From IMG/VR virus record IMGVR_UViG_3300029305_005724, positions 64,001-128,000 of that record: a DNA stretch of 64,000 nt. One strand, given 5' to 3'. The notes beneath the pieces were generated by a model. That model was not told where the DNA came from. It did not search any database and worked only from the letters and a program-made list of their open reading frames with translations. The stretch is from a virus (taxonomy: Duplodnaviria; Caudoviricetes). Of the stretch, positions 16,544 through 40,549 are shown one piece after another. Numbering within the stretch: the first letter of the stretch is position 1; each line of letters begins with the position of its first letter. Both the position numbers and the translations under genes were made by a program.

Positions 16544-16565
16544 TCATAATTATAATATGTATCTA
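16544..16565 (-). promoter_or_regulatory. Early-type promoter
   Basis: TAGATAC-ATATTATA-ATTATGA. Confidence 0.6.
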
Positions 16566-16663
16566 AAAAGAAATATGCGATAGTCCGAAGACTATCGCAT
16601 ACGTACTTTATTACAATGAAAGGAGATAAACAAAATGAACTTCAACCGAAAACATCTTTGTTT
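16565..16663 (-). ncRNA. Candidate anti-RBS sRNA A (~99 nt)
   Basis: Promoter AACATCTATATA (16663-16674), anti-SD/anti-AUG tract GUUCAUUUUGUUUAUCUCCUUUCAU, 12-bp cUUCGg terminator. Confidence 0.55.
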
Positions 16664-16675
16664 ATATAGATGTTA

Positions 16676-17107
16676 TTACTTTCTGAAATATTCAGGAATA
16701 GAAGCTTCAACAAATTCTTTATCGATAGCTTTCATAACAACAGCAGATTTATCGCCATATTTAGCAATGAGATCATTCATTACTCTACGTTCCTGAATAC
16801 GAAGAGATACAAGCTCATCCCAAAGGGGATCATCCTCTTCCTTTGCCATATGGCAAACTGTAGTTCTGAGAAGAGTATTCACATTACCGTCAGCAAGTCT
16901 ATCAATCATATCCTGATTGATAACTCCAGCTTCCATCATAGCTTTGGCTTCATCAGATTTAATAAATTCTTTAATCTTCGCAGAAGGAAGATTGCTCAAA
17001 GTTTCAAAAACAACTGCCTCACGAAACTGATTAGGGTTCTTGAGGGCACTTTCTAACTTGACATCAGCAGATCCAAAGATCTTGCTGTTTACCATTTCCA
17101 TAAACAT
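16676..17107 (-). CDS. Putative head protein
   Basis: 143 aa; late promoter at 17133-17144; KLES, FREA, MMEA, FVEA sites. Confidence 0.6.
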   Translation of the reverse strand: MFMEMVNSKIFGSADVKLESALKNPNQFREAVVFETLSNLPSAKIKEFIKSDEAKAMMEAGVINQDMIDRLADGNVNTLLRTTVCHMAKEEDDPLWDELVSLRIQERRVMNDLIAKYGDKSAVVMKAIDKEFVEASIPEYFRK

Positions 17108-17235
17108 ATCATGAGTCCTCCTAATTGATATTTATATAAATGTTGCTTGATTAGATATTATCATTATGAGCATAATATGAACTTTCATAATGCCAAAAAC
17201 AAAATTATAATATATTAAATGGAGGTATATTAGAA

Positions 17236-17685
17236 ATGCGAATTCCAGACACATTAACAAGACAGCAAGCAATGTATTTGCTTGAAAAATATTTATTAGA
17301 CGAAGAATCAACCCCTAATTTATCACTAGACCAGTTAACAAATGGCTATATAAAAGCAGATCTTGTGCAGCAAGTAAACTGTGATAGAGTTCATAGAATT
17401 TTATATAAGCATAGTAAAAAATATAGAAATCAATCGCCTCATAAGTCTGAGCTTTTAAATTATGAACAAGCTATAGGCAAAATAATGGGATATTTGCTTG
17501 GAGACAATTATTATATCGTAGATCCAGTAAATATGGAGCAAGGAAATTCTGTAATTGTACATGACATTTTAAAGCAATATTCTAAGCGTTATAGAAAAGA
17601 GCTTAGAGAAGAGTCTAAAATGGATACTTACTTTAGATTATTTGGCCGTACTATAATAATCAAAAAGAAGGAGAAGCGTAAATGA
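17236..17685 (+). CDS. Hypothetical protein
   Basis: GGAGG RBS; promoter at 17198-17209; ATGA overlap with the polymerase gene. Confidence 0.75.
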   Translation: MRIPDTLTRQQAMYLLEKYLLDEESTPNLSLDQLTNGYIKADLVQQVNCDRVHRILYKHSKKYRNQSPHKSELLNYEQAIGKIMGYLLGDNYYIVDPVNMEQGNSVIVHDILKQYSKRYRKELREESKMDTYFRLFGRTIIIKKKEKRK

Positions 17686-19787
17686 AAGATAATATGCGAA
17701 CTTCATTAGCAAGATATCCAGAAAGTGATATCTTGTATAATTATAAGAAAGTAGCAATGGAAATGCTACATTTTAATTTTCCGTCATTGAGTGAGGTTGA
17801 GTTAGCAGCGGCTGTTGATAACTCTATTTCTAAGCATTTTAAAGATACTGCCGTTCAGATTGATAATAATTATAAAAAGAAAACAATTGATATGACATTA
17901 AGAGGTCTTGCAGATTATATAATCTCAAGAGAACCAATTATAACCTCTTATGGAGTTCTATTTAACAGACACGGTGTATTGCCGAATCCTATATATACAA
18001 TGGTCGATGGATTTATTAATGACCGTAAGAAAATGAAAAAAGAAATGTTTAAGTATCCGAAAGGATCTGAAGATTTCGAGAAATACAATTTGCTTCAGTT
18101 ACTTTTGAAGATAGACAGTAATGGATTCTATGGCGCCACAGGCCAGTATAGTTGTATATATTATAACCTCTATACTGCATCTAGTGTAACAACTCAAGGA
18201 AGATCTTGTAACTCTGCAGCTGCTCTATTCTTTGAAAGCTTCTTAAATAATAATGTTCCTCATGCATCTATGAATGAGCTTATTACATTCATTCATAATG
18301 TGCTTAATGAGAAGCATCATTATAACAGCAATGATATTATTACCAACCATGCAACTCTTGATGAAACATTCTTCCAGTTAATGTCCACTACTGGATTCGG
18401 ATGGGTACCTTCGTATGATGAGATGTATATCGTTTGGGATATTCTTGCTAAATTAAATCAAGATGAATTAGATAGGCTTTTCTACAAGAATAATCTATTC
18501 CACTTTATCGATAATATTCCAGTAAAACAGTCTATTTTGTTTATTCTTCAGCAATTATCTGCTCCCTTCATGGATCCGAATGAGCCGCCAGAGGAAATTC
18601 AAGAAGCACTTGATGAATTTTTGGCAGTTGTTCAAGAGTATGTTTATTATGATAAACAAATTACAGATCGTATTGAGAAGATGGCATCCCTAGTTCGTTC
18701 CGTATCTATTATTCAAGACACAGACTCTGCTATCATTAGCCTTGATGGTTGGTATCAGTATGTAAGACAATTATGTGTCGGTGTGCCGATGAATATTAAG
18801 AATGAAGTTGTTGATGCTCTTGAATTTATTGAAAGCGGAGAAGTTAAAACATCTGAATCTAAACAAAAGATTATGGACTATAGCTTCTTAGACGATGATA
18901 TGATTGAAATGGATAGACTGATAGATCCTATGGTTATCACACCTCAGGATGGACTCAGATACTCTATTATCAATATTCTGGCATACTGTATTGGTAAGCT
19001 TGTCAATGATTATATGGAAAAGTATGCAAGAAATGCTCATAGTGATAATGAACGTCCTTGCCTACTTGTTCTCAAGAACGAATTCCTATTTAAGCGTGTT
19101 CTTATTACAGATGCTAAAAAGCACTATGCATCAAAGATGGAACTTCAGGAAGGAAATATTATTCCTGAAGATAAATCCCTTGATATTAAGGGCATGGATG
19201 CATTTGTTAAATCCAGTACTAATAATGCAATTAAAGAAAGATTGAAAAAGATTCTTTATGATGATATTCTTAATTCAGAATCTATAGATCAGATTAGGGT
19301 TTTAAAGGATATAGCTATCGTTGAAAAAGAAATCTTTGATTCTATCAATAATGGCGAAAAGAGATTCTTTAAACCTGTAAAGGTAAAGTCTCTTTCTTCT
19401 TATGAAAATCCTATGCGTATTCAGGGTATTGTAGCTTCCTATGCATATAATGCATTGCATGAACCTGGAACTGAAGCATTGGATATGAGCATAAGAAATT
19501 CTGTTGATATCGCAAAAGTTGATATTAATATGAAAAATATCGATCGTATTAGAGAGTCATTTCCTTATGTATATGAGAAGGCTATACAACTTATGAAGAC
19601 AAAGGAATTTTCTACAGGAATATCTTCTATAGCTATTCCTTCTAACGAGCCTGTTCCTGGATGGATTCTGCCATTTATTGAATACGCTCCCATTATTAAG
19701 GACAATGTATCAGGATTCCCGATTGAGTCTATAGGGCTATTTAGAGGTCCAGATACAAATAATTCTACTAATATAATTAAATTTTAA
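17682..19787 (+). CDS. Family B DNA polymerase, C-terminal part of a split enzyme
   Basis: Motif B KIDSNGFYG, motif C QDTDS, KKHY and IKG motifs; no exonuclease domain or motif A. Confidence 0.85.
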   Translation: MKDNMRTSLARYPESDILYNYKKVAMEMLHFNFPSLSEVELAAAVDNSISKHFKDTAVQIDNNYKKKTIDMTLRGLADYIISREPIITSYGVLFNRHGVLPNPIYTMVDGFINDRKKMKKEMFKYPKGSEDFEKYNLLQLLLKIDSNGFYGATGQYSCIYYNLYTASSVTTQGRSCNSAAALFFESFLNNNVPHASMNELITFIHNVLNEKHHYNSNDIITNHATLDETFFQLMSTTGFGWVPSYDEMYIVWDILAKLNQDELDRLFYKNNLFHFIDNIPVKQSILFILQQLSAPFMDPNEPPEEIQEALDEFLAVVQEYVYYDKQITDRIEKMASLVRSVSIIQDTDSAIISLDGWYQYVRQLCVGVPMNIKNEVVDALEFIESGEVKTSESKQKIMDYSFLDDDMIEMDRLIDPMVITPQDGLRYSIINILAYCIGKLVNDYMEKYARNAHSDNERPCLLVLKNEFLFKRVLITDAKKHYASKMELQEGNIIPEDKSLDIKGMDAFVKSSTNNAIKERLKKILYDDILNSESIDQIRVLKDIAIVEKEIFDSINNGEKRFFKPVKVKSLSSYENPMRIQGIVASYAYNALHEPGTEALDMSIRNSVDIAKVDINMKNIDRIRESFPYVYEKAIQLMKTKEFSTGISSIAIPSNEPVPGWILPFIEYAPIIKDNVSGFPIESIGLFRGPDTNNSTNIIKF

Positions 19788-19790
19788 GAA

Positions 19791-19826
19791 AATGGAGGGT
19801 AGTAATACCCTCCATTCTTTTTTTTT
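19791..19826 (+). terminator. Intrinsic terminator
   Basis: AATGGAGGGTA-GTAA-TACCCTCCATT plus T-run. Confidence 0.85.
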
Positions 19827-19843
19827 GTAATTTAAAGGTTTTT

Positions 19844-19865
19844 TAATTGTATATCATTACAATGA
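19844..19865 (+). promoter_or_regulatory. Early-type promoter
   Basis: TAATTGT-ATATCATT-ACAATGA. Confidence 0.5.
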
Positions 19866-20124
19866 GAAAGAGAAGCATTAGAATCTCTTAATCCTTTTAT
19901 TCGTAGACATCTGATCTGCGCGCAATTGGATGTCGATTCGAAGCTACTTATTCTCATATAATATGCAGGAGGTGGTGAATTCAACCATTCTCCTTATTCA
20001 AAGCCTCCTGTGGTCATGTGGGACCCGGGATCATTCTGCTACTAGCACTAGCAGTCTGACCGTTATTAACCTCGAAAGAGTTTAATATATAAAACAAAAA
20101 TTTTACGCAAAGGAGAATGGTAAA
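19863..20124 (+). promoter_or_regulatory. Long structured 5' leader with anti-RBS
   Basis: Several stems; ACCATTCTCCTT is complementary to the downstream RBS AAGGAGAATGGT. Confidence 0.55.
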
Positions 20125-20457
20125 ATGGCACACGACAATACCGGCAGCAATTTTGCAGCAGAAGAGGATCTTATGAATAAAGAGTTCAGAAAGAATAACC
20201 TCAACAACATCAACAAAAAAGAGTTTGAAAAGGATATCAATCCGGAAAATCCTGCAAGCGAAATCAATAAGAAAAATGAAGAGCTTATTGATCCCATGGC
20301 TTGCGAAGCAAGTCCTGAAGAGCTCGAAGCTAAAAAGAAGAAATGGATGGACATCTTCCAAAGATGCCCTGATTTCGCAAATTGGATTCTTGAAATCTAT
20401 GAAGGAGTCGGATCTGCCGGCCTTGATGATATCATGAATGCATATTTCCATAACTAA
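20125..20457 (+). CDS. Hypothetical acidic protein
   Basis: AAGGAG RBS; 110 aa; followed by a terminator at 20474-20509. Confidence 0.7.
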   Translation: MAHDNTGSNFAAEEDLMNKEFRKNNLNNINKKEFEKDINPENPASEINKKNEELIDPMACEASPEELEAKKKKWMDIFQRCPDFANWILEIYEGVGSAGLDDIMNAYFHN

Positions 20458-20568
20458 TTTAAATTAGTTATGGAAAAGAAAGAGCTTTATAAAGCTCTTT
20501 CTTTTTTTTAATTACCTCATGTTAGCTTTATATAGAATCTAGAACGAAATATTAAGGGGTGATGAATT

Positions 20569-22104
20569 ATGAATAAAATCGTTGTTTATCGAACTCATAT
20601 AGAAATAAACAATTATAGAAGAGGGGATTGCCCTCAATTAGAAAAAACATTCTCTGTTTATGATAGACTTTATCATAGACGATTTCCGAAAGGAATGATA
20701 TATGATGAAGAGAGAGGAGTACTCATGCTCCCTAGAGGTATTGATATCGGATATGTAGAAAGGCTTCTACAGTCCGAACCTGTTGTTGATGGAACTATAG
20801 ATCCAATAGGAGATGTGGGTCCAATTATGCTTAAATATAAACCTAGAGATACTACACAACAAGAAGCTATAAGATTTATGCTTAGTATGGATAAATATAA
20901 AAGAAATGAAAATAGCACAATGCTGTCAGTAAACTTAAATACTGGTAAAGGTAAAACATATTGTGCTATTGCAACTGCTGCATATCTGGGATATAGATCT
21001 ATAGTTATCACAGATAATATTGGTTGGTTAGAGCAGTGGAAAAATTTCTTTATTGAATACACAGATATTACAGCTGACGAGATCTATATGATTTCAGGAG
21101 CTCCTTCATTAATGAAGCTCTTTAATAGAGACATTTCAAAATATAAAGTTATTCTTTCAACTCATTCTACTATTAAGAGTATTGGAGATAAGCAAGGATG
21201 GGATAAGATTAGATCATTCTTCACTCATTGTCAGATAGGAATCAAATACTATGATGAGGCTCATTTGAATTTTGACAATATGTTTCAGATTGATTGTTAT
21301 TCAAATACATTTTTGACTTATTATTTAACAGCTACTCCTGGTAGAAGCGATGCCGGGGAAGATGCAATATTTAGTTTATATTTCAAAAATGTGCCGTCAA
21401 TCAATCTATTCAATATCGAATCAGATCCGCATACGAAATATGCTGCAATTAGATTCAATTCTAATCCGACCCCAGTTAATGCAGCTAGCTGTAAAAATAA
21501 ATATGGATTAAACAGAATTGCATATACCGATTATCTAGTTAGAAATGATAATTTTCAGCAATTACTAATTATTTTGGTCAATATGGCAATTCGAAAACCT
21601 GGAAAACATTTGTTCTATATCGGAACTAATGAAGCAATTCTTTATGTAAGAGACTTAATATATCAGAATTTTCCAGAATTGATAGGACAGATAGGAATTT
21701 ATACAAGTATAATTCCTCCTGATAAAAAGCCTAGAGAACTTGAAAAGAAGATAATATTAAGTACGACTAAAAGTGCTGGAGCCGCAATGGATATAAAAGG
21801 TCTTGTAGAAACAGTTAATCTTGCAGAGCCTTTTAAATCCAAAGTTTTGGCTCAGCAAACTCTTGGTAGAACTAGAGCAGCAAATACACTATATAAAGAT
21901 ATTGTAGACACAGGATTCTATTATACAAAGAAATTCTATGATTTTAAGAAGCCTGTATTTAAAAAATATGCATCTGAATGCGTAGAAATTAATATGAATA
22001 AAGATGATATTGATAAACGAGTTCTGGGTATAATGGATAATAGAAGCAAAATGATTCAACCAATGGAATTTGCTGATAATCCATTTAAATCCGAAGAATC
22101 GTAA
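20569..22104 (+). CDS. SF2 DNA helicase (UvsW-like)
   Basis: NTGKGKT, DEAH, TATP and QTLGR motifs. Confidence 0.9.
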   Translation: MNKIVVYRTHIEINNYRRGDCPQLEKTFSVYDRLYHRRFPKGMIYDEERGVLMLPRGIDIGYVERLLQSEPVVDGTIDPIGDVGPIMLKYKPRDTTQQEAIRFMLSMDKYKRNENSTMLSVNLNTGKGKTYCAIATAAYLGYRSIVITDNIGWLEQWKNFFIEYTDITADEIYMISGAPSLMKLFNRDISKYKVILSTHSTIKSIGDKQGWDKIRSFFTHCQIGIKYYDEAHLNFDNMFQIDCYSNTFLTYYLTATPGRSDAGEDAIFSLYFKNVPSINLFNIESDPHTKYAAIRFNSNPTPVNAASCKNKYGLNRIAYTDYLVRNDNFQQLLIILVNMAIRKPGKHLFYIGTNEAILYVRDLIYQNFPELIGQIGIYTSIIPPDKKPRELEKKIILSTTKSAGAAMDIKGLVETVNLAEPFKSKVLAQQTLGRTRAANTLYKDIVDTGFYYTKKFYDFKKPVFKKYASECVEINMNKDDIDKRVLGIMDNRSKMIQPMEFADNPFKSEES

Positions 22105-22193
22105 ATAAAGGATTCTTTAACGATATACTATAAAAGTGAATGAGAGAAGGAATAAATCCTTCTCTCATAATTTTTATAAGGAGGTACAGAATA

Positions 22194-23564
22194 ATGAAAG
22201 GAAAGGCAATTTTTAATCCTTTAGTTACGATGTACAAGTACGGAGCAGATAAAACAGCTCCACTCGCGAAAGACCGTGTAGCCGGTATTATCAATGATAA
22301 TGAGAGTGAAACCACTCGTAAAGATAATACAGCTACAACCACCACCAAAGTTGACGAAACTGTCAACGCAACAGATGTAGGAGAAGCAGCAAAGACTGCT
22401 GGCTCCGAATCCGCAGGATCTGATGGAGTCCTTGACTTTAGCATGTTTGGTGTCAAAATTGATACCGATGCAATGTCTGGAGCAGTCAGATTTGAATCGC
22501 AGGAAGAAGAGAAAGCCTGTGCAAGACGTATGGTAGACGATGCCATTCGTCGAAACGGCATCAATACAAATCCTGCGGCAAATCCCATTTTTGGTAATCA
22601 GCCTATGAACAAAGGAGCTCCTATGCAGGGTGCAAGTCAGCAGCCTGTTGTTGGAAGAGGTAGACATAAGGTTGATAACCCGACTCAGCAGAAGCCCAAG
22701 CCTCCTAAGGCAGAAGCGGATAATGTTGAGTTTACTCCCGGCGTTCTCAATATTGAAGTAGAGCCACCTAAGCCTCCTAAGACTTGGCCTGATCCTACGA
22801 ACAATGTTCTTGAGAATGCAGAGCCCATTCCCGAAACTGCTCAGTCCTTTGATAATTCTGCAGTGATTGCTCAGTTCAATCAATGTGCAGGACTTTTGAG
22901 GGATATTGAGAAGATTGCATCTGAGGTCGGAGTCCATGTCCAGATGATTTCGAAGCCCGGAAGCAATGGCCAGCCCAGTGGTTTGATCGAATGCTATGTG
23001 TATACAGGTCAGCCTACTCCGAATCCTTTCAAGGGATTCACAATCGACACCGGTGCTATCATCGATCGTCGAGTAAAGATCTTCCCTGCAATTGTTGAAG
23101 CAGGTTATGAGGATCTTCCCGCATATCCTGTAATGATTTCCAGAGATGGAAAGGAAGAATCTGACAATAAGAAGAAGGTTGTCGATGCTAAGTTGATTAA
23201 AACTCTTCTTGTCGGAGGTGCACAAATGCTTACTCCTAGCTCTATGTACACAAAAGATTATATGGAGCTTAATAAGCATGTAGCAATCATTACTATGCCT
23301 ACAAGTCACATGAATTCTGAGACTCGTAAGGCCGTTCGAGATCGCCTGCTCAATGCAATGAGATCTGGTCTCTTCGAAGAAGCAGCGAAAATCGATCAGT
23401 TCGCAAGATTCCGCTTTGTACCTAAGTCGTACAATAAGCAGACCCTTGAGTTCGAACTCTCTAGCCAGGGTGTTCCTTACAGATTCTGTGGTCCTTGCAT
23501 GAGCAAGAAAAATATCACAATCAAGTTTGGAAAAGATGGCAAGGCAACAATGTCTCATGAATAA
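22194..23564 (+). CDS. Early hypothetical protein with Pro-rich linker
   Basis: ATG at 22194 after AAGGAGG; early-type promoter at 22118-22139; terminator at 23582-23617. Confidence 0.75.
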   Translation: MKGKAIFNPLVTMYKYGADKTAPLAKDRVAGIINDNESETTRKDNTATTTTKVDETVNATDVGEAAKTAGSESAGSDGVLDFSMFGVKIDTDAMSGAVRFESQEEEKACARRMVDDAIRRNGINTNPAANPIFGNQPMNKGAPMQGASQQPVVGRGRHKVDNPTQQKPKPPKAEADNVEFTPGVLNIEVEPPKPPKTWPDPTNNVLENAEPIPETAQSFDNSAVIAQFNQCAGLLRDIEKIASEVGVHVQMISKPGSNGQPSGLIECYVYTGQPTPNPFKGFTIDTGAIIDRRVKIFPAIVEAGYEDLPAYPVMISRDGKEESDNKKKVVDAKLIKTLLVGGAQMLTPSSMYTKDYMELNKHVAIITMPTSHMNSETRKAVRDRLLNAMRSGLFEEAAKIDQFARFRFVPKSYNKQTLEFELSSQGVPYRFCGPCMSKKNITIKFGKDGKATMSHE

Positions 23565-23655
23565 TCATTGGGCATTTGCCGATCCCAGGTACCTTTTGGT
23601 ACCTGGGATTATTTTTTAATGCTTCGGCAACTTTTAAGTAACAGTTTTAAGGAGA

Positions 23656-24450
23656 ATGAAAATCATGCCGAATGAATTAATAGAACCAATGGAGTTCTTT
23701 AAAATAGATAAAGTTTCAGATGATGTTTATGCTATTGGTCCTAATGTCATTCTGAAGTTTAATGTATCTCTATCCAAAATGTCAAATGGAAAGAGATTTC
23801 ATTTTCATAAAGAATATGAATATCCGTCGAGAGGCGTTCCGGGCCTTTCGACTCTTGTAACTATAAAAAGAAGTTTTGACTATTATCTTTCGATAGAAAA
23901 TATGACAAAAGATAATAGTGGAAATAAATTATTTATAAGAATTGGTCCTCAAGAATATATGATATTTAAAAGAGGACTTGAAGAAGCTATTTCCTGGTTT
24001 ACTGATAATAAATATGCAAAACTATTTGCAAGAGATAGAGGTAAACTAATTCTGATGCCTCCAGTACCAGAATTTGTAATGCAAAATCTTCCAATGCAAA
24101 AGTATATACACATTCAGCCAATTATTATTGATAGAGGTATGGCCAATGATGATAAAGAACCCGGTATTAGATTAACACTGGGTGATAATTCGAATGTAAT
24201 TGACATTAATCTTGATAGATTGATGGGATTATACTATACAATTTCTTGCTTTAATATGTATCAAGCAGCTTTGATCATGGTCAACTATATTCAAAGACCT
24301 GAATTTGGTACAAATCGCTTTGTGATGGAGCCTTCACATCTAATGGGTCAAGAATCTGGCGTAAGGTATGGCTCATCTGGAATAGAAGGAAGATTTGTAA
24401 CTCCTCAAGGAAGTCCAGACAATATAAAAACCTTGGAAGGAGGACAATAA
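23656..24450 (+). CDS. Hypothetical protein
   Basis: 264 aa; promoter at 23629-23640; N-terminal LIEPMEFF motif. Confidence 0.75.
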   Translation: MKIMPNELIEPMEFFKIDKVSDDVYAIGPNVILKFNVSLSKMSNGKRFHFHKEYEYPSRGVPGLSTLVTIKRSFDYYLSIENMTKDNSGNKLFIRIGPQEYMIFKRGLEEAISWFTDNKYAKLFARDRGKLILMPPVPEFVMQNLPMQKYIHIQPIIIDRGMANDDKEPGIRLTLGDNSNVIDINLDRLMGLYYTISCFNMYQAALIMVNYIQRPEFGTNRFVMEPSHLMGQESGVRYGSSGIEGRFVTPQGSPDNIKTLEGGQ

Positions 24451-24452
24451 CA

Positions 24453-25088
24453 ATGTTTAATCCAAATATGCATTTATTTTTCGATAAAGATGAAAGAGAG
24501 CCTGCTCTTAGATATCTTGTTATGAAATTCTTCAACGGAATGGAAAATAAAATGGATACAAGAGCATTGGCTGCTATGATTGATATGATGTATGGTGTAA
24601 ATACAGTAAAGATGGCAAATTATCTGGCTGTAGAAACCACTATAGTTGAAAAATATGAAAAAGCAATATTAGAATATTGCTCATTCGTAGATATTGATGC
24701 TGAGATTATGTCATATAATCCAGGACAATTTGTTGTTAAGTCAATAGTCAATCAGGCTTTAAAAGGTCCAGAATCTTTTGCACCATTAATGTACTGGGAT
24801 CCTGGTAGAGAGTGGAATTTTAATAATGTGCCAAAAGAAGGAGCTTTAATGAATCCTTTAAATCATTACGTTCATTCTTCTCTTACTTTAAAGAATGTAG
24901 AATACCAAAAACTTCGCAATTTTGCTGTAAAAGCTTTACGTGAAGATTTTAAACTACTTAATAAAGCTTTTAATGATTTAGATAAGCAGAATACGAATAA
25001 AACTGCTACTCTAACAATTGAGCTTTTACCATGTGATACTTATAAAAATATAATAAATATCACAGATACATTACATTTGTATTTTTAA
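24453..25088 (+). CDS. Hypothetical protein
   Basis: GAGGA RBS, operonic. Confidence 0.75.
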   Translation: MFNPNMHLFFDKDEREPALRYLVMKFFNGMENKMDTRALAAMIDMMYGVNTVKMANYLAVETTIVEKYEKAILEYCSFVDIDAEIMSYNPGQFVVKSIVNQALKGPESFAPLMYWDPGREWNFNNVPKEGALMNPLNHYVHSSLTLKNVEYQKLRNFAVKALREDFKLLNKAFNDLDKQNTNKTATLTIELLPCDTYKNIINITDTLHLYF

Positions 25089-25102
25089 GGAGGAGAAAAA
25101 AA

Positions 25103-25465
25103 ATGGATTACTTGATAGAGCATTTTATAAGAGTTCTAGATTCTTATAAGACCTTGAGAAAGGAATATACAAGAAATAGTGATGGTAGCTATACCATTGA
25201 TATTTATGATATCCCTCCAGAACTAGATCTAGAGCTTTCTAGACTTAGCTACGATGAGGTTATAGGACAGAAAGAGACTAAAGATAAACATGGACGTGTT
25301 ATTGGAGTAGAAAAGATTACTCAAACTACAATGTGTTTTGTTGGTATCGGAGAAGGACTTAATCTTAGGCTTGTTCTCGATAAAGATACATATGCTAAAA
25401 AGATGAATCTAATAGATCCAATTCTTAGGAGATATTTTGCAGCACATCGAAACCTCGGCTTTTAA
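25103..25465 (+). CDS. Hypothetical protein
   Basis: AAGGAGG RBS. Confidence 0.75.
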   Translation: MDYLIEHFIRVLDSYKTLRKEYTRNSDGSYTIDIYDIPPELDLELSRLSYDEVIGQKETKDKHGRVIGVEKITQTTMCFVGIGEGLNLRLVLDKDTYAKKMNLIDPILRRYFAAHRNLGF

Positions 25466-25510
25466 AAATGATAAGGATAGAACGAAAATCGTTCTATCCT
25501 TATCATTTTT
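25465..25510. terminator. Bidirectional terminator
   Basis: Long inverted repeat AAAATGATAAGGATAGAACGA between convergent genes. Confidence 0.85.
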
Positions 25511-26276: not shown

Positions 26277-26362
26277 AATGATAACACCTCCATATAAACT
26301 TTATTTATTATAAATGTTAAACGATTAAGAGGAGCATGAACAACATGCTCCTCCAATCTATA

Positions 26363-28540: not shown

Positions 28541-28604
28541 AAGATTAGCCTCCTTTCTTATAAAATGAAAAGAGAAATTTTATATTAATTATAAGTTGGC
28601 TGCT

Positions 28605-28639
28605 AAAGAAAATATGAGGAGTCCGAAGACTCCTCATAT
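28605..28639 (-). terminator. Intrinsic terminator (cUUCGg loop)
   Basis: ATATGAGGAGTC-TTCG-GACTCCTCATAT. Confidence 0.85.
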
Positions 28640-28648
28640 CGTGTGTGT

Positions 28649-29470
28649 TTAGACCTTCTTTTTCAGACAATAATTCTGAATCTCATTTGCAATATGATTT
28701 TCGAGATTTACTATAAAAATATCTCCAGTTTTAGCTACAAGCCTAACCTGACTGCCATTATTAATAACAGTTGCAGACTCGTACAAGAAATCAATCTGAT
28801 TGATCAAAGATCTGATATTAGCAGATTCATTCTTAATATAGCTAAGCACGCTAGCATTTGTAATAGGAATAAGCAGTCCATTTTTATTCATAGATTCGAT
28901 AGGCTTATTAGCAAATCCTGCAGATTCTGTTACAAGCTTCGTAGTATATGCATGAGGATGAGAAGGATAGATAACTCTATCCCAAGTAATAACTTTAAGA
29001 TTTTGAACGACATTACGACCCTTAATAGTTTCAAGAGATCCAAGAGCTCTCAAAGACCAGCTAGGAAGAACTCCTTCTCTAAGATCCTGGTCAAATTCTT
29101 CACCAAGAGCATTATTTGTACCCTTAAAATGAGCCATAACATTATTTCCATCCATCCAAATCTTAAGGAAACGAGCTACGGTATTATTGGGATCAATAGT
29201 CTGCTGACGAATCATAGCACTATCCATAGGATGACCATTCTCGGACAGCATATTTCCCGTACTAAGCAATTCTTTTGTTCTTGCGCAATTTATTTCACGA
29301 AGAAGATCGTTATGAAGATAGCAGCGGCCATTTCTATTTTCTTCTTCTGCAGTTTGAATAATTCCTTCTCCAATTACTCTTTTGCCATTCTCAGAAATAA
29401 CCTTTGCTTCCTGAGCTTCCAAAGGAGCACTTTCGAGGATTACATATCCAATCGTTTTATTCATAGGCAT
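28649..29470 (-). CDS. Prohead core protease (T4 gp21-like)
   Basis: NRNGRCY, ENGHP, SLRALGS, TWDRVIYPS motifs; ATG at 29470 after AGGAGG; promoter at 29496-29507. Confidence 0.88.
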   Translation of the reverse strand: MPMNKTIGYVILESAPLEAQEAKVISENGKRVIGEGIIQTAEEENRNGRCYLHNDLLREINCARTKELLSTGNMLSENGHPMDSAMIRQQTIDPNNTVARFLKIWMDGNNVMAHFKGTNNALGEEFDQDLREGVLPSWSLRALGSLETIKGRNVVQNLKVITWDRVIYPSHPHAYTTKLVTESAGFANKPIESMNKNGLLIPITNASVLSYIKNESANIRSLINQIDFLYESATVINNGSQVRLVAKTGDIFIVNLENHIANEIQNYCLKKKV

Positions 29471-29562
29471 TGTATACGCACCTCCTAGTTTCATTTATCG
29501 ATATGTTGGCAGTTTAAGACTTTTTAGGCATTAAAAAGATATTACAAAGCCAACGATATAAT

Positions 29563-29916
29563 GAGAGATTATTTCGATTACGGGTATGTAAGCGTGTGGA
29601 TACAGGTGATCGATACTTTTATCAAAATGTATTTTGCATTTGATAAGAGGACATCTCTTATATAAGTTTATTAAGAACTCGAGAGCTTAATAAACTTTGG
29701 GAGGATATGAAAGCTGAAGAAGTATATTTCGTAAATATATAGACCCTAAACTATATATTTGCTATAGCGATATATACGTCTTTTCTAGATTTGGAGGTGA
29801 TGGCCCAAATCTAGAGAAAATAATGAGATGACTAATGAATGAAATGTATGTAAGGTCCCTTTATACAGGGCCCGGCCTATAGGCTGAGTCTAAGCAGCCT
29901 ATAGGTTTTACTTTTT
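29563..29916 (+). ncRNA. Candidate ~350 nt structured ncRNA
   Basis: Promoter AACGATATAATG (29552-29563), at least 6 stems, terminator CCTATAGGCTG/CAGCCTATAGG; no long ORF. Confidence 0.65.
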
Positions 29917-29933
29917 AAAAATAACATATATTT

Positions 29934-30015
29934 GAAGCTCGTGAGATTTTTTCTTTTCTGGTTTTATTCCTTTCACCCGTGTACTCAGTCCTAGAGTGCA
30001 CGGGGCTTTTATTTT
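29934..30015 (+). ncRNA. Candidate anti-RBS sRNA B (~80 nt)
   Basis: Promoter AACATATATTTG (29923-29934), pyrimidine tract with UUAUUCCUUUCA, terminator stem at 29976-30004. Confidence 0.55.
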
Positions 30016-30093
30016 ATATAATAGCTATATATTATAAAAATAAGAAGTACGAAACTTCTTAATAAAAAAAAATAAATTTTGGAGGACTACGAA

Positions 30094-30684
30094 ATGGAAC
30101 ACATTGTAAGTTTTAAGAACAACAAGAAGCATGAATGTGATTGTGGCGAAAACTGTTCTTGTAATAAAAATACAGCTGTTGCTGCAAAAATCACATATCA
30201 AGAAGTAGCTATGGGCAAGATCAATCAGCTCATGGACTATGAGCAGACTCTATTCGAAGGAGTTCTTCCTAGAATGGAAGAAGCTCAGTTTAGAATTAGT
30301 GATGAAGGATATTTTGTAAGACCTAAGAATTGCGAAGCTCCGCAGCTTGCGGCTTATTTTCCTGCAATGGCTCTTCATGGTGTTAGCCACGAACCTCATA
30401 GTTGCGCAATGACTATGATTGCTGCTACGGATAAAGGTCTTAGGTATGCACTTCCTGAAGAAGATGGTAAGATTGCAGATGGTGGGCTTGTTTGTACACC
30501 TTGTATGATTGGAAATGCTCAGAGACCTAGTGCTCTTCTTATTCCTCTTGCTCATCCTGATATTGTTAGAGATGGCGTTGAGATTGCTATGCAGATTCAT
30601 AATAATATGCTGGATCAGATTGACGCTATGAAAAATGGATTGAGCGATAATGCGGAGCATATTGCTGTAAACATTCCTGATTAA
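30094..30684 (+). CDS. Early hypothetical protein with Cys-rich N-terminus
   Basis: ATG at 30094 after GGAGG; early-type promoter at 30022-30043; HECDCGENCSC. Confidence 0.75.
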   Translation: MEHIVSFKNNKKHECDCGENCSCNKNTAVAAKITYQEVAMGKINQLMDYEQTLFEGVLPRMEEAQFRISDEGYFVRPKNCEAPQLAAYFPAMALHGVSHEPHSCAMTMIAATDKGLRYALPEEDGKIADGGLVCTPCMIGNAQRPSALLIPLAHPDIVRDGVEIAMQIHNNMLDQIDAMKNGLSDNAEHIAVNIPD

Positions 30685-30809
30685 GCTTTTATCATAAAGG
30701 CAGAAGTAGAAAAGGCTTCTGCCTTTATTTTTTTTTCTAAAGTCATTGAATTACTTTACTTGACGTCTAACTTATAAATAATCAAAAATAGAGGGAGGCG
30801 GCAACTAGC

Positions 30810-33221
30810 ATGAAACAAGCACAAGTTAAAGATATTAATAATAGATTGCATTGTCTTACCAAAATCAATAATGCTCAGTCACAGAATAAGAATCGTTCTT
30901 TTCTAGAAGGAGCACAATTTGTTTTGAAACAAAACAGACCAGGAGATATTAAGCGGCACATTGAGGCGGCCGCTTATTCAAATCGTGAAGTTCCATTTTA
31001 TGCAGTAATGGAACTATTCGATGCTTTAGCTATAAATGGGACTCCTAGCGATATTTCTAAAATGGCAAGCATTATTGCAGAAAATATTGTTCCTAAAACC
31101 AGAAATGCTAAAGAGATGCAAACTTTGATGAAACGCAAAAATACTTCTATTGCTCATAAAGTATATGCTAATTATGATCGTAAAGATGGCCATACAAGCG
31201 GAGGAATAAATTCTTCTAAAGCCGTAGCTGATCAGAAAAAAGCAGAACAAAATACTGCTGCTATCAAAGAAGGGTATCAAACCATTCTTGATGAAATCAA
31301 TATTTGTATTGCTTGCGATAGAGTTCTAGAAAACTATAATAGGATTTCGAAAAGATTTAATCTTGAGTATCTTATTAATGAAAATACAAAGCATAATGGT
31401 GTTAAAGACACCATAGTCGAATTATGCACAAGAATTGATACATATGAAATGCCAAATGCTGTAAAATTTAATACAGTTATTGAAACAGCGCTATATGGAT
31501 TCAGTCAGAATAATATTGAATTCAATAAATCTGATATTATAGAAACTGCATTGAATTACTTTGCGTTCAAGCCAAATGGTTTAAAAGAATGCGGAGAAGT
31601 TATGGATGCTACTATTTTCTATGATAAGGAATCTGATAGCAATGATAATATTAAAATGCTAATGGAAGATCAACCGGAAGATGATAGAAACGATATTCAA
31701 GAGCAGATTTCTGCATTTTATGCTGGAACAATTTCTGAATCTGTTGAATTCTCAGAATTATTCAATAAATTTAAGAAAGAAGAAGCATCTAAAGATGAAA
31801 AAACTCTTATGACTCGTTTTAAGTCATTAATTTCTAAGCTTTATGCTAGAAACGTAAATAGCGTTGTAGAAGACACCCCTGATCTTTTACAGTGGATTAG
31901 ATCTTTCTTTATTATTGGATCTGCTGCAATTCCGATCGTTGGCCCTATTTGTATGATTATAGGGTTTATTGCAGATAGATTTATTTCTATTCATATGAAT
32001 AGAGAAGAGTCTGAAAAAATGGCTAAATACTTTGCTAATGAAATAAAAGCTAGTAAAGCAAAATTGGAGAGCTCTAATAATGCTGAAGATAAGGAGAGAC
32101 TTGAAAAATATATTAAATCTCTTGAAGAAGCTCATGAAAAGATTACTATGTATTACATGGATCTTCGTGGGGATAATGAAGAGTACGAAATTCCTAGTGC
32201 TGAATCTAATAAAGATGAATTTGATTTCGATGATGATTTCTTCGATGATGAATTCGAAGATGATGATCTTTTAGAGTCGGTTTTCTTTAAGAAAAGTGCT
32301 AAATTAACAGAAGCTGTTGGAGAGTTCGTGCTCGATAATCCGCTTTCTGATTCTTCTATTTATAATCTTGCTTCAGAAGCAGATGATGAAGATCTTATAA
32401 ACCTATGTAGTCTCGCTACAATGTATCCTGATGAATTCCACAAGGATTCAATTTGCCAGGCTATTAGAGATAAATTAGTAGATATCAGATCTGATAAAAT
32501 AGTTTTCGAATCTACAATATCTAGAGTTACAAAGATTGCTGCACTATATGATGCTCTCAATATTCTTGAGTCTAATTCTATATCAACTAATGATCCACAT
32601 TCGTTGAAAGATATGATGATGAAAGTTTATTACTTTGGAGAGGCATATCAAGCAGTTGTAAGAATGAGTAATGCAATTGCTGAGAAGAATAATTCTATTC
32701 TTGAAGCATCTTTTGGTAATAGTATTAAGCTTGCATCGTTAAAACTTAAACAGGCTATGACAAAGCTAAAAGATAAGGATAAGCAAATTTCTCGAAATAT
32801 CGATATTAGCATGAATAACTTTAAGAAATCGGCAGAAAGAGCACTTACAAATGATAATAGAGAAGCCATTATCAAAGGAAGTGTATTGCCTTCTGCATCA
32901 AAGATTGTAAAGATAGCACTTGCTACTGGAATCACGGCTCTCATTAATCCCGTAATTGCAGTAATTGGCCTACTTGGATATCTCGGATGCTCTGCTAAAT
33001 TTAAAGCAAAAGAGCGTCAGATGATTATTGATGAGCTAGAGATCGAGTTGAAAATGTGTCAAAAGTATATTGATATTGCTGAGCAGAAAAATGATATGAA
33101 GGCTCTTAAACAGTTGCTTCAAACTCAGAGAGAGCTTGAGCGTCAGAAACAGCGTATTAAATATAAAATGCAAGTTGACTTTGGTCAAAAGTATTATGAT
33201 GCTAAGTCTGATGATGACTAA
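30810..33221 (+). CDS. Large head/internal virion protein
   Basis: 803 aa; late promoter at 30769-30780; ISES, LLES, LTEA, VFES, ILES, ILEA sites; two hydrophobic hairpins. Confidence 0.6.
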   Translation: MKQAQVKDINNRLHCLTKINNAQSQNKNRSFLEGAQFVLKQNRPGDIKRHIEAAAYSNREVPFYAVMELFDALAINGTPSDISKMASIIAENIVPKTRNAKEMQTLMKRKNTSIAHKVYANYDRKDGHTSGGINSSKAVADQKKAEQNTAAIKEGYQTILDEINICIACDRVLENYNRISKRFNLEYLINENTKHNGVKDTIVELCTRIDTYEMPNAVKFNTVIETALYGFSQNNIEFNKSDIIETALNYFAFKPNGLKECGEVMDATIFYDKESDSNDNIKMLMEDQPEDDRNDIQEQISAFYAGTISESVEFSELFNKFKKEEASKDEKTLMTRFKSLISKLYARNVNSVVEDTPDLLQWIRSFFIIGSAAIPIVGPICMIIGFIADRFISIHMNREESEKMAKYFANEIKASKAKLESSNNAEDKERLEKYIKSLEEAHEKITMYYMDLRGDNEEYEIPSAESNKDEFDFDDDFFDDEFEDDDLLESVFFKKSAKLTEAVGEFVLDNPLSDSSIYNLASEADDEDLINLCSLATMYPDEFHKDSICQAIRDKLVDIRSDKIVFESTISRVTKIAALYDALNILESNSISTNDPHSLKDMMMKVYYFGEAYQAVVRMSNAIAEKNNSILEASFGNSIKLASLKLKQAMTKLKDKDKQISRNIDISMNNFKKSAERALTNDNREAIIKGSVLPSASKIVKIALATGITALINPVIAVIGLLGYLGCSAKFKAKERQMIIDELEIELKMCQKYIDIAEQKNDMKALKQLLQTQRELERQKQRIKYKMQVDFGQKYYDAKSDDD

Positions 33222-33313
33222 TACAAAAGGAAGGATCTTTTTGATCCTTCCTTTTTATTTATGCTGGTTCAACATTAAATTAAATATTTTTCAGAAAAGG
33301 AGGAAAACTTTAT

Positions 33314-34036
33314 ATGGGTCTTTTCTTTCCAAGATATAAGGTAAAACCACTTAATGAAGTAGAATTAGACGGTCAATCTTCTGAAAATGAAGATGGTACT
33401 GAAGGTACTACAGACTATAGTGCTCAAGCTGAAGATGGAGACAATACTACAGCTACTACGGAAGAGCCTACCGATAATAATGATAATCCCCCTGAAGACC
33501 AAAGCACTTCTAATAATGAAGAGGATAATACTTCAGCAGATGATACTGGTTTAGGTGATGGTATGGAAAATCCAGAGGATGATTCTACAGATTATTCTGC
33601 CATGGGAGATGAGGGAAGTAATGATAATACTAATGATAATAACAGTAATAGTACACCCTCGACAAATAACGATGGCGAACAAAGTTCTATAGATGAACTT
33701 AAACGTCAAGAAGAAGAAATGTACGCAGATTTAACTCCTGAGCAATTAGATATCAAACATCGTGAACTGAAGACTCAATTCTTATCAATGTTTGATTTGA
33801 CAACTCAGATTATTGAAAGAATTAATGATGCTGCAACAACAGAAGAAAATATGCCTATTATAGAATTTGTATCTAATAAGCTCTCTTCGCTTAGAGACAT
33901 GATGACAGATTATATAAATAGTGTATATAAAACTAAGTCTTATATTGAAAATTCCATTAATTATAATAAATTTCTTGCTATTTTGAACGGAATTAATAAA
34001 ATTCTAGAGGAAATGAATCAAAAAGAAGTTAAATAA
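33314..34036 (+). CDS. Acidic scaffold/core-like head protein
   Basis: D/E/N-rich N-terminus and helical C-terminus; upstream of the capsid gene; promoter at 33271-33282. Confidence 0.55.
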   Translation: MGLFFPRYKVKPLNEVELDGQSSENEDGTEGTTDYSAQAEDGDNTTATTEEPTDNNDNPPEDQSTSNNEEDNTSADDTGLGDGMENPEDDSTDYSAMGDEGSNDNTNDNNSNSTPSTNNDGEQSSIDELKRQEEEMYADLTPEQLDIKHRELKTQFLSMFDLTTQIIERINDAATTEENMPIIEFVSNKLSSLRDMMTDYINSVYKTKSYIENSINYNKFLAILNGINKILEEMNQKEVK

Positions 34037-34060
34037 TGTTTTTCAATTCTGACTTATCAT

Positions 34061-34072
34061 AACATCATGGTA
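34061..34072 (+). promoter_or_regulatory. Late-type promoter of the capsid gene
   Basis: AACATCATGGTA. Confidence 0.7.
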
Positions 34073-34142
34073 AAAATATTGTCCGTAATCAGGGCGTATT
34101 TGAAACATCTTATATTAAGCTTAATAGAAAGGAGCATTTAAT

Positions 34143-35930
34143 ATGCCTGTAATTGGTAATCGCAGATCCACGGCTTCCATGGGCGACGGTTATATGCATG
34201 ATTCCATTTATGCATTTGCCGAGAGCTTTAGAGAAGTCGCTAAGGATATTTACAACGAAGGCGTAGATCTGTTCCTGGAGCCCTATAAGGCTCTTCAGAA
34301 CGGAGCTACCAAGAATGCACTTAAGAATTTCTATATGGAGAATTCTTTCGATGCAAACGAGTTTTCCGCAGTTAACCCTGGTCATGCAGCAGAGCTTGCT
34401 GAAGATGCTCAGGCTATGATGGAGGCTCAGTTCGAGAATGACCTCGAAGCTATCTACGAGCACACTAACGTTGGTGCTATGAACCCTGTTATCGGTATGA
34501 CGTTCCCGCTTCATAAGAATATCCTTATGAACAACGTATTCGATAAGGGCGCTATTCCGAAGTTTGTTGCTCGTGAACCTAAGTTCACCATTTCCCTTGA
34601 GCAGAGAATTCTTCAGACTCCCGATGGTCAGGAGATCGATATGTTCAAGGAGCAGTACAAGATCCATGACGCGATCGCTGCTACTGCACCCTACAAGGAA
34701 GTAGAGATGACTCTTCCTCAGACCGAGGGCGCTACTGATGTTCTTGCTGAGATCGGTGCTACCGGTGAGGATAATCTCTCTATCGAGACTCACATTTCGG
34801 CTGTTAAGGTTACTGGCGTTCATCTTGAGGCTGGTGACTACAACCCCGAGACTGGTGAGGAGATCACCACTGCTGGCGAGTACTCTTTCTGGGCACCCGT
34901 TAAGCTCGAGTTCACTCCTTCTTACGGCGAGATTGACCGCATCATCGCTTCTCAGGTAGTTATTATCGGTAAGGATGCTGCAAATGCTGGCCAGAAGAAA
35001 GAGTATAAGGACGTTATCACCGGCTTTATGCGTAACAACAAGTTCATGCTGAACGGTTCTACCGGTCTCGTAACTGCTGTTAAGCTTAACGCTCGTATCG
35101 ATACTTCTTCCGCAATGCTCAAGACCTGCAGCGTTCGTTGGAAGGTTAACACCGATATCGTTGAAATCGGTTCGGCTACTCCTATCAACACGACTGTATC
35201 TCCTGAGGAAGTTAAGGACGTTGGAGCTCTTTACAATGTAAATCAGCTCTCTAAGGTTCTCTCCCTCATGAAGACTGTTCTTGGCGAGTACAAGGATACT
35301 TCTATCAAGAATCAGCTTGATCAGTCCTTCCTCCGTATGCCCGAGACCAACAAGTTCTCGACTACGTTTGACTTCGCTCCTCGTCAGGGCTATGCTCTTG
35401 ATCACGTTGAGTGGCGTCATAAGACGTTCATGGACTACCTTGACAGTGTTTGCACTGGTCTCTTCCAGGTTCTGAACGATCCTAATATGACGGTTTCTAT
35501 CTTCGGTGCTCCTGATCTTATTCGTAAGATCACTCCTACCGAGTATACTTATCAGACTCCTTCTAACATCGGTCCTGTTGAGCTTGACTTCGTAAAGACC
35601 GTTGTTACTTCGGACAAGAGAGTATATCAGTTCATCGCATCTGATAAGCTCCGTGGTAACGCAAACCTCATCATCGTACTCTGCCCCAGAAATACGAATC
35701 GTATTGTATATCGTATTTACGACTACCAGCTGTACGTATCGAATGAGATCCGTAACATGGTTAACCCTGCACTTCCCGCTGTACATGCGTTCGAGCGTTG
35801 GAAGTTCGTAGAGTATCAGCCTGTTCAGGGTCGTATCCAGATTAAGCATCCTACCGGCCTTGCTGAGATCGCTCCTAACGAGGATCCTATCGGCGGTCGT
35901 TTCATGAATGACTTTAATCTTCTTAAGTAA
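34143..35930 (+). CDS. Major capsid protein
   Basis: 595 aa with strong high-expression codon bias; propeptide-like N-terminus; lies in the head module near protease and terminase; terminator at 35959-35996. Confidence 0.8.
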   Translation: MPVIGNRRSTASMGDGYMHDSIYAFAESFREVAKDIYNEGVDLFLEPYKALQNGATKNALKNFYMENSFDANEFSAVNPGHAAELAEDAQAMMEAQFENDLEAIYEHTNVGAMNPVIGMTFPLHKNILMNNVFDKGAIPKFVAREPKFTISLEQRILQTPDGQEIDMFKEQYKIHDAIAATAPYKEVEMTLPQTEGATDVLAEIGATGEDNLSIETHISAVKVTGVHLEAGDYNPETGEEITTAGEYSFWAPVKLEFTPSYGEIDRIIASQVVIIGKDAANAGQKKEYKDVITGFMRNNKFMLNGSTGLVTAVKLNARIDTSSAMLKTCSVRWKVNTDIVEIGSATPINTTVSPEEVKDVGALYNVNQLSKVLSLMKTVLGEYKDTSIKNQLDQSFLRMPETNKFSTTFDFAPRQGYALDHVEWRHKTFMDYLDSVCTGLFQVLNDPNMTVSIFGAPDLIRKITPTEYTYQTPSNIGPVELDFVKTVVTSDKRVYQFIASDKLRGNANLIIVLCPRNTNRIVYRIYDYQLYVSNEIRNMVNPALPAVHAFERWKFVEYQPVQGRIQIKHPTGLAEIAPNEDPIGGRFMNDFNLLK

Positions 35931-36070
35931 TTAAGAAAGATACACTCTAAATAAAAATAAGACAAGAGGGCTTCGGCTCTCTTGTCTTTTTCTTTTATTA
36001 GCTGTCAACTATTAAATAATCTTATATTTACGATATAATGAAAAATCCCAAGATTGGAGGAAACACAATC

Positions 36071-37243
36071 ATGAATAAAATAAATTATGATTTCGGTGAA
36101 TTTCATAATGTGTTCGAAAGCATGCGCACGAAATCTAATGCTACTCCCGATGAATTGAAAACTCTGAAATATGAGCTTAATAGATTCTTCGATGATTCTA
36201 CGTGTAAAGATGTACTTTATACAAATAATCTTGACAATATGTTTTTCGGTATCAAGATAATTCCTATGATCGATGCAGACGAAATTTATGAATATCTGGC
36301 AGACAATGAGAAGATTCGTATTGAGAGCTACATCGTAGAGATCGATTCCAAACTTCTTAATCCTATTATTGATCTTAATAAGTTTGAGCTTACTGCCATT
36401 CTCCTCGAAGAGGTTGCTAAGATGGTTGGCGACTCTACTCCTATGGAAAATGCTCGCAATGCTCTTACACTCTATCTCTCTTCTAATAGAACTCATATTA
36501 AGATTTCTCAGTCTGTTCATTATAAGGAACTTCTTGCTTATGGCTTGAAAGACTATTTGTCGAAGTGTACCTCGCTATTCTATAAAGATGATATTACCGA
36601 TGTTAATAGTGATGAATTTGCGATCAGTTATTGTCTCGTAGACCATCTGATTTCAGGATATAACAAGATCAAGGGTGATAATCTCAAACTATATCAGGAT
36701 AGCGAAATCAGTAAGTTTATTGTATTTAGCTGGGCTTTGAGCTTGTATAATAATATTAAAATTCATAGAGTTGGTGCTCTTAAGACATTGGCTAGATCTA
36801 AGTCTCTTACTGGTTCTAGACTTGAAAAGATGGAAATAGATAACGTTATTCGTAGAATTCAGAGAATTGATGATAGCGTTGTTCTGGAAGCTGCTGAAAC
36901 GACGAGTGGCATCCGCCTTAAGATTAAGGAAAAACTTAAGAAGGCTCGTTTGAATAATCTTCGTACTATTGACAGCACTTTTTATGAGCTGTCTATGCAG
37001 GTAAGAAATGTAGAAGATGAGCATGATGCTCTCTATCTCATGAGACAGATTAACAACTGTATTTCTATTATCGATGAGTACAAGAATCTTCAAGACTGTG
37101 ATGAGTATGAGCAAAATAAGTGGAAAGAAGCATATGATAAGTTCGTACAGCTTCGTGACAAACTTTCCAGTACTGTCGTATATAAGAATAAACACTACGG
37201 AATTTTCGTAAATTACCCGGATATTGTAGAGAATCGTTATTAA
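36071..37243 (+). CDS. Putative head protein
   Basis: ATG at 36071 after GGAGG; promoter at 36007-36018; VFES and VLEA sites. Confidence 0.6.
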   Translation: MNKINYDFGEFHNVFESMRTKSNATPDELKTLKYELNRFFDDSTCKDVLYTNNLDNMFFGIKIIPMIDADEIYEYLADNEKIRIESYIVEIDSKLLNPIIDLNKFELTAILLEEVAKMVGDSTPMENARNALTLYLSSNRTHIKISQSVHYKELLAYGLKDYLSKCTSLFYKDDITDVNSDEFAISYCLVDHLISGYNKIKGDNLKLYQDSEISKFIVFSWALSLYNNIKIHRVGALKTLARSKSLTGSRLEKMEIDNVIRRIQRIDDSVVLEAAETTSGIRLKIKEKLKKARLNNLRTIDSTFYELSMQVRNVEDEHDALYLMRQINNCISIIDEYKNLQDCDEYEQNKWKEAYDKFVQLRDKLSSTVVYKNKHYGIFVNYPDIVENRY

Positions 37244-37252
37244 CAATAAAGT

Positions 37253-37394
37253 AAAAGTTACTATCTCCCTGCCGTGATGGAACTTTGCCGTAAACCGCGT
37301 GTTTGTGTTTTCATGTTGTTGTTCGATTTTCTCCTCCGTGTAAGTTTATATTTAAAATACCAGTAGAGGCATAGCCTCTACTGGTATGATTTTT
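37253..37394 (+). ncRNA. Candidate anti-RBS sRNA C (~140 nt)
   Basis: Promoter AACAATAAAGTA (37242-37253), 5' hairpin, tract GUGUUUUCAU...UUUUCUCCUCC, terminator stem at 37357-37387. Confidence 0.5.
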
Positions 37395-37395: not shown

Positions 37396-37767
37396 TTACT
37401 CTATATATCTTCCAATAATTTGTGGTTTAGTTATGTCCCCTCCAATAAATACAACTATCCACTTTGAGCCTGCTGGAATATAATCAGAATAATCATCAAT
37501 GCATAATGCTTTATTAAGCGGTATTTCAACATAATTACTTATAGTAATATTAGAAATTTCTAGGGCTGTCTTTTTTGTATTTCTTAAATTGCCAGGATTT
37601 TGATGAATTATATTAGATACTTTTTTAGAGTTATCTAGCGATGGCGTTAATATTGGTATAGAGAATTTAACCAATCCAGGATTGGTTTTATTTATGTCTT
37701 CCAGAGCTATAGCTATTTCTGGGTATTTCAAATCTAAATTATCATAAAAATTATTCATTGTTTGCAT
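37396..37767 (-). CDS. Baseplate spike-type OB-fold protein (gp5/GpV N-terminal-like)
   Basis: IPAGSKWIVVFIGGDITKPQIIG matches the PxxGxxVxVxFxxGDxxxPxIxG pattern. Confidence 0.65.
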   Translation of the reverse strand: MQTMNNFYDNLDLKYPEIAIALEDINKTNPGLVKFSIPILTPSLDNSKKVSNIIHQNPGNLRNTKKTALEISNITISNYVEIPLNKALCIDDYSDYIPAGSKWIVVFIGGDITKPQIIGRYIE

Positions 37768-40526: not shown

Positions 40527-40549
40527 ATTTATAAAAAGGAGAACGGCAT

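Follow-up and report, generated by a model that had tools for sequence, protein, structure and literature searches.

How do jumbo phages with two RNA polymerases shut off the expression of their early genes, and do lytic phages make use of base-pairing small RNAs (sRNAs)? Both questions are open, and both are raised by three intergenic units, called A, B and C here, that lie in a 64,000-nucleotide (nt) stretch of viral DNA (the window; bases 64,001-128,000 of IMG/VR record IMGVR_UViG_3300029305_005724). The source genome, of 223,865 bp, belongs to an uncultured AR9-like jumbo phage whose nearest cultured phages are AR9/PBS1, at an identity of about 30%, and the genes of the window include those for a split RNA polymerase beta' subunit, head protease, major head protein, terminase, DNA polymerase, GroEL and ThyX. 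A preliminary description of the window had claimed that each unit joins a late phage promoter to a U/C-rich tract containing an anti-Shine-Dalgarno (anti-SD) sequence and to a terminator, and all three units are indeed found, at the same coordinates (Table 1). We argue that they probably specify base-pairing RNAs directed against translation start regions, whatever their aim, and we lean, with much less assurance, towards the phage's own messages being among the main targets.

In AR9, late promoters have the consensus AACA-N6-T(A/G), and transcription starts at the last base of the motif (PMC5312081). This motif stands 5' of 44 of the 195 genes in the present genome, compared with 11.4 in shuffled sequences and 1 on the antisense strand, and it is a genuine late promoter in this phage. 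The genome also encodes, as an AR9-type late unit calls for, both an AR9-like multisubunit RNA polymerase and a homologue of AR9 gp226, the sigma-like specificity subunit of the non-virion polymerase, whose gene is split by an intron. The placement of A and C is itself unusual: For 81 of the 93 genes followed by a terminator, the spacer between stop codon and terminator is 35 nt or less, and because only four of the longer spacers in the genome hold a late promoter, A and C among them, the units exceed what chance would supply.

The anti-SD tracts of A, B and C are predicted to be unpaired (0.86-1.0), and the folding z of the units, about -4.5, derives mainly from the terminator stem. Some details of the preliminary description have to be narrowed. 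An anti-AUG had been assigned to A and C; that of A holds, but the CAU of C is misplaced, being 16 nt from the anti-SD and too far away for a simple SD/AUG register. Unit B of this genome has no anti-AUG, and most of its orthologues carry one. The UGUA said to follow the anti-SD is present in all three units (in B as part of the terminator stem), but it does not mark the family, since it occurs in only 8 of 26 homologous units, with about 2 expected. Similarly, the units are a family by their common design but not by descent that can be read from sequence, there being no homology among A, B and C. That they belong to no described family is borne out by Rfam, which gives no match to them at the gathering score or up to an E of 1, and ARAGORN finds no tRNA match in them; the class of mechanism, however, is known from csRNAs (CiaR-dependent sibling sRNAs of streptococci) and from the c4 antisense RNA of phages P1 and P7.

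Table 1. Coordinates of the units, their parts and their candidate targets. Positions are those of the window, except in the last five rows, which give positions in the whole genome (G000).
Feature	Position	Strand	Remarks
Unit A promoter (AACA-N6-TA)	16674-16663	-	Right after stop of 143-aa late gene 16676-17107; predicted start 16663
Unit A, about 99 nt	16565-16663	-	Orthologous design in 3/8 lineages examined
Unit A anti-AUG	16635-16637	-	Within weak 5' hairpin
Unit A exposed anti-SD	16618-16625	-	Predicted fold
Unit A terminator	16573-16602, then U tract	-	
Unit B promoter (AACA-N6-TG)	29923-29934	+	At site in 15/15 loci examined; predicted start 29934
Unit B, about 82 nt	29934-30015	+	Begins with 5' hairpin
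Unit B exposed anti-SD	29967-29974	+	Predicted fold
Unit B terminator	29976-30004, then U tract	+	
Unit C promoter (AACA-N6-TA)	37242-37253	+	Overlaps stop codon of 390-aa late gene; predicted start 37253
Unit C, about 142 nt	37253-37394	+	5' hairpins
Unit C CAU	37312-37314	+	
Unit C exposed anti-SD	37330-37337	+	Predicted fold
Unit C bidirectional terminator	37357-37387	+	
groEL-like start region	40534-40560	+	Gene 40550-42289; weakly supported as a possible target of C
thyX start region	48296-48332	+	Gene 48312-49712; candidate target of A and C, predicted best or near-best own partner of both
Unit H	17655	+	Further late-promoter anti-start-region unit
Unit E	39060	+	Further late-promoter anti-start-region unit
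Unit M	56850	+	Further late-promoter anti-start-region unit
Unit F	58534	+	Further late-promoter anti-start-region unit
Unit D	195412	-	Further late-promoter anti-start-region unit

Comparison with related phages demonstrates that what persists at these sites is a design. Loci were fetched through their flanking proteins and not through the motif, which provided 27 non-redundant units, and expectations were obtained from dinucleotide shuffles. Orthologous units barely align, being too divergent for alignment, though the design stays: The anti-SD core, whose conservation the preliminary description had named as a test, is found in 26 of the 27 units (10.5 expected), and an anti-SD with an anti-start codon 3-12 nt upstream in 20 (2.1 expected), the anti-start codon often lying inside a weak 5' stem. 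By comparison, an SD on the sense strand occurs in only two. Across homologous units the last anti-SD is a median of 12 nt ahead of the terminator, and the unpaired score of the anti-SD exceeds that of the remaining RNA (0.74 vs. 0.54; p = 7e-5). Two circumstances weigh against a literal reading of such statistics: The motifs counted for enrichment were chosen after some units had been seen, and the lineages are related, so that the very small p values are overstated, although the effect size is still large.

The presence of the insert is matched by that of the promoter. An A-type insert occurs in three lineages (this genome, G004 and L153; the promoter is also present in the G004 and L153 orthologues) and is missing in five, where the terminator directly follows the stop codon. 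Unit B was found in all 15 loci examined. The insert of unit C is present in 14 loci, each with the promoter, and is absent in G003, L057, L098 and L087; the promoter is likewise absent in the insert-less G003 and L057. Of the insert-less sites tested by pattern, all seven have no late promoter.

A U/C-rich tract could also be the shadow of something on the other strand, either the SD and ATG of translated micro-ORFs (open reading frames) or the functionless scars of inverted gene starts. On that strand an SD and a start codon do stand at normal spacing in 20 of the 27 units, and upstream of A, on the + strand, there is a sigma-70-like site, which precedes a 53-codon ORF. Translation of small ORFs opposite the units was one of the outcomes that the preliminary description had named as fatal to it, but these ORFs range from 4 to 53 codons (with one of 158), have no peptide in common, and do not exist in 7 of the 27 units, including B and C. 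The promoter and the U-tract have the orientation of the U/C strand and accompany the insert, and the sigma-70-like site near A coincides, in reverse, with the early promoter of the beta' gene. As for scars, an anti-SD that stays exposed close to a terminator across many lineages is not what they would be expected to leave, and we hold either version of this explanation to be very improbable.

We give almost no credence to the idea that the sense strand encodes short hydrophobic peptides. The preliminary description had found no usable ORF there; strictly, ORFs of 14, 17 and 29-30 codons exist in A, B and C, respectively, but they have no SD, are not leaderless and are unconserved, varying in position and length and being absent from 3 of the 27 units, and U-rich RNA is short of stop codons through its composition. 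A further alternative, for which we see only a slim chance, is that the units act as decoys or protein-binding RNAs that mimic the 3' end of 16S rRNA, for example by absorbing a host nuclease that cleaves the anti-SD. An exposed anti-SD, the want of a clear single target and the several modules per RNA in some units would all suit a decoy, yet 16S rRNA contains no counterpart of the correctly spaced anti-start codon of 20 of the 27 units, which makes sense only if mRNA is the partner, and the tract, mostly CCUUU, is a poor match to the 16S tail.

The maintenance of a design despite diverging sequence, the restriction of the promoter to sites with an insert, the exposed anti-SD, and the lack of conservation of opposite-strand ORFs together argue that the units are genes for late non-coding antisense RNAs, which are probably regulatory and probably lower translation. 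As such, the earlier claim of late, trans-acting antisense RNAs that occlude start regions is upheld by comparative evidence in what it says of design, but not in the aim that it assigned to them.

The preliminary description had also suggested scanning for further units with promoter, anti-SD and terminator, and there are five more in the genome, outside the window. These units (D, E, F, H and M) have syntenic counterparts in G002, G003 and G004, and in unit M five modules are enclosed by a closing stem. Among distant relatives, G006, G007 and G009 contain few such units and none at site A or B. In the relative L074, site C holds two units instead of one, and a further unit separates the major head gene from the 390-aa gene (7520-8000, 9300-9480), which indicates that such units are readily gained. 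Judging from the loci compared, the turnover of units between lineages, by gain, loss and rewriting, is quick.

To which messages the RNAs are directed was approached by pairing 31 units from four whole genomes (G000, which is the present phage, G002, G003 and G004) with 720 start regions. Several results weigh against the phage's own messages as targets. The top five partners include no excess of own-genome start regions (35 vs. 38.6), the longest perfect match extends no further in the own genome than in relatives (11.6 vs. 11.9 nt), and there is no general preference for early genes, 23 of the 31 units pairing slightly better with late-type start regions. The strong pairs do contain more own core genes with early promoters than expected (42 vs. 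31; p = 0.018, uncorrected). The early-to-late switch or host shut-off envisaged in the preliminary description is not borne out by these results: The signal for own messages is modest, a general early preference is lacking, and no host target emerged.

The best-supported own target, by a modest and partly post hoc case, is the sigma-like subunit of the late RNA polymerase. When genes are ranked for the RNA pool of their own genome, the sigma-like gene is placed in the top 1%, 0.6%, 8% and 5% in the four whole genomes (Fisher p = 1.6e-4 over 110 clusters, about 0.02-0.04 when corrected), and it beats all nine label derangements; that the statistic was picked after looking counts against the result. 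The main partner of this gene is unit H, whose anti-GUG matches its GTG start, and its codons 4-7 are matched perfectly by unit C over 12 nt, with further pairing at the SD. Among the 207 own genes, thyX comes first or fourth as a partner of unit A, the two being perfectly matched along 13 nt that include the AUG, and the orthologue of A in G004 likewise prefers its own thyX. Unit C ranks thyX 4th, the sigma-like gene 6th and groEL 7th among own genes, and unit F pairs with the own cluster-49 gene (G000 49282) in three genomes.

Other candidate pairs are less favorable to own targeting. Covariation between C and groEL (p = 0.02 overall, 0.09 in held-out phages) depends on the scoring, and unit B has no robust partner. 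Six pairs (C-groEL, C-g93, C-g94, C-g98, B-protease and B-g98) gave covariation p values of 0.006-0.04 under one scoring or subset only; because these fail under other scorings or subsets, none was accepted. Also rejected was the pairing of B with a late-region gene (G000 170849), a 14-nt perfect match over the first codons at -24 kcal/mol, which most orthologues do not have.

A weak pairing signal in the own genome is also what would be seen if the same RNAs acted mainly on host mRNAs, whether on specific genes or as a broad brake on messages with AAAGG-type SDs that frees ribosomes for late phage genes with GGAGG, and quick divergence would fit differing hosts. The anti-SD cores are mostly CCUUU (38, vs. 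14 CCUCC), which suits the AAAGG SDs that are commoner in early genes. In the four whole genomes, the SDs of early-promoter genes (23% GGAGG, 48% AAAGG) are weaker than those of late-promoter genes (59% GGAGG), and the two classes differ in 16S pairing (p = 7e-9). The CCUUU bias, however, may reflect AT drift with G-U wobble, and the N-termini of the implied targets vary among orthologues, which points away from any single conserved host gene. The 24-nt complement of A has only four scattered matches, in unrelated genes, in 185,579 prokaryotic species genomes; with the host not identified this is a weak test, and the scan neither supports nor excludes host targets. We consider a mainly host-directed action unlikely, though it deserves to be taken seriously.

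A third possible aim is at related, co-infecting phages, through a c4-like heteroimmunity or superinfection exclusion, for which c4 offers a precedent (PMC12197685). Unit A pairs over 21 nt, with one G-U, with the start region of the G003 major capsid gene, and close relatives account for five matches of 16-20 nt, a length that no match in own or distant genomes reaches. Cross comparisons are, however, three times more numerous than own ones, two of the long matches fall in the most AT-rich genome, and matches of at least 14 nt have a similar share in both (about 13% cross, 10% own), all of which leaves this aim a remote one.

On balance, we favor by a little a late trans-acting RNA repertoire that includes A, B and C and has the phage's own early or replication messages among its targets. 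The three units would be part of a dispersed set with at least eight members in this genome. If the AR9 consensus is a guide, the non-virion RNA polymerase, made after early expression, would initiate at AACA-N6-T(A/G), and the hairpin terminator would end the transcripts, producing RNAs of 80-140 nt; A and C may in addition be made as the 3'-terminal parts of the late mRNAs that precede them. The predicted folds suggest that the single-stranded anti-SD would serve as the seed, and that the anti-AUG and the adjoining U-rich part, held in the weak 5' stem, would open upon pairing. Pairing across the SD, the spacer and the first codons would then block 30S loading, as the precedents of csRNAs and c4 imply. 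The least certain step is the last, in which each RNA would have several partners, some of them the phage's own early or replication messages, including those of thyX, groEL and the sigma-like subunit of the late polymerase, the latter giving negative feedback. In other phages the early-to-late transition is served by mRNA cleavage of the RegB type or by repressor proteins. It is conceivable, but we would not presume it, that a genome-wide, modular antisense layer takes their place here, in which fast-evolving late RNAs with one to five anti-start modules each silence the own early programme, including the sigma-like subunit.

Several features lie beside these units. Directly 5' of B is a separate, highly structured stretch of about 350 nt without ORFs (29560-29915, + strand; folding z -6.4), with a 3' hairpin bearing a TTTATACA loop ahead of its own terminator. 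This hairpin is kept, with stem changes, in at least 10 relatives; the stretch has no match in Rfam and is probably a distinct conserved non-coding RNA. A gene-free, GC-richer stretch after the DNA polymerase terminator (19870-20075), of which a core of roughly 25 nt and a 3' motif recur at the same site in L152, is a possible structured RNA, also with no Rfam match. Just past the terminator of C, on the opposite strand, L070, L071, L075, L078 and G003 have a gene for a LysM amidase/lysozyme that is absent here. Anti-defence genes occupy variable slots of relatives (L153 1042-1374; L071 12667-12930; L078 12675-12941), where Tad8 takes the place that gene 17236-17685 has in the window and the DHH gene is followed by Sequestin. 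Outside the window, a tRNA-like gene with a CAT anticodon has a late promoter in front (G000 about 212742-212820, + strand), and an intergenic gap ahead of a terminator (G000 about 37550-37720) holds about eight tandem copies of a 17-nt unit.

Through predicted RNA ends, a seed that is exposed and candidate targets that can be named, the units bear on the two questions raised at the outset, and reporters in any Firmicute would serve to test them; similar units are predicted in culturable AR9-like phages. If host messages prove to be the targets, the units would amount to an RNA-based host shut-off. The modules would also be natural templates for translation silencers in Gram-positive bacteria.

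Among known systems, the closest are the csRNAs, in which an anti-SD is combined with an anti-AUG and which have additive effects on the targets that they share (PMC3091779, PMC4507080). The units resemble them in consisting of several dispersed small RNAs under one promoter class, in placing an anti-SD, and in most units an anti-start codon, between hairpins, though the latter often falls within the weak 5' stem, and in the predicted convergence of several RNAs on one start region, additive action being the csRNA feature. Whereas csRNAs are bacterial, driven by CiaR and alike in sequence, the units are phage-encoded, have an AR9-type late promoter, are mutually unrelated and evolve fast, and neither the CiaR direct repeat nor a -10 box is present upstream of A, B and C. 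They would work like csRNAs, yet they are not members of that group. The c4 RNA is a trans-acting phage RNA that blocks translation near the ribosome binding site of a phage message (PMC12197685), and the units are similarly phage-encoded and predicted to pair near ribosome binding sites; pairing at that position on own mRNAs gives a modest signal in subsets and none overall. Unlike c4, a single RNA that acts on one operon in temperate immunity, they are many and belong to a lytic jumbo phage, and the Rfam C4 covariance model has no match in them. PreS of lambda and VpdS of VP882 are sRNAs that base-pair, in the lytic cycle, with mRNAs of both host and phage, PreS activating dnaN by exposing its ribosome binding site, but they differ from the units in depending on Hfq, in belonging to temperate phages of Proteobacteria and in having host-polymerase promoters (bioRxiv 2024.10.31.621285). 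Late transcription units and orphan small non-coding RNAs have been reported, with no mechanism assigned, in AR9, phiR1-37, phiKZ and 201phi2-1 (PMC5312081, PMC4848604, PMC8244752, PMC11512511), and the late units of AR9 have the identical promoter class; neither these papers nor a 2026 review (PMC13282480) describes an anti-SD family or a target. Within the literature searched, where nothing of this kind is described for lytic jumbo phages, the units would represent a variant of a known sRNA mechanism, that of csRNAs and c4, in an unexpected setting.

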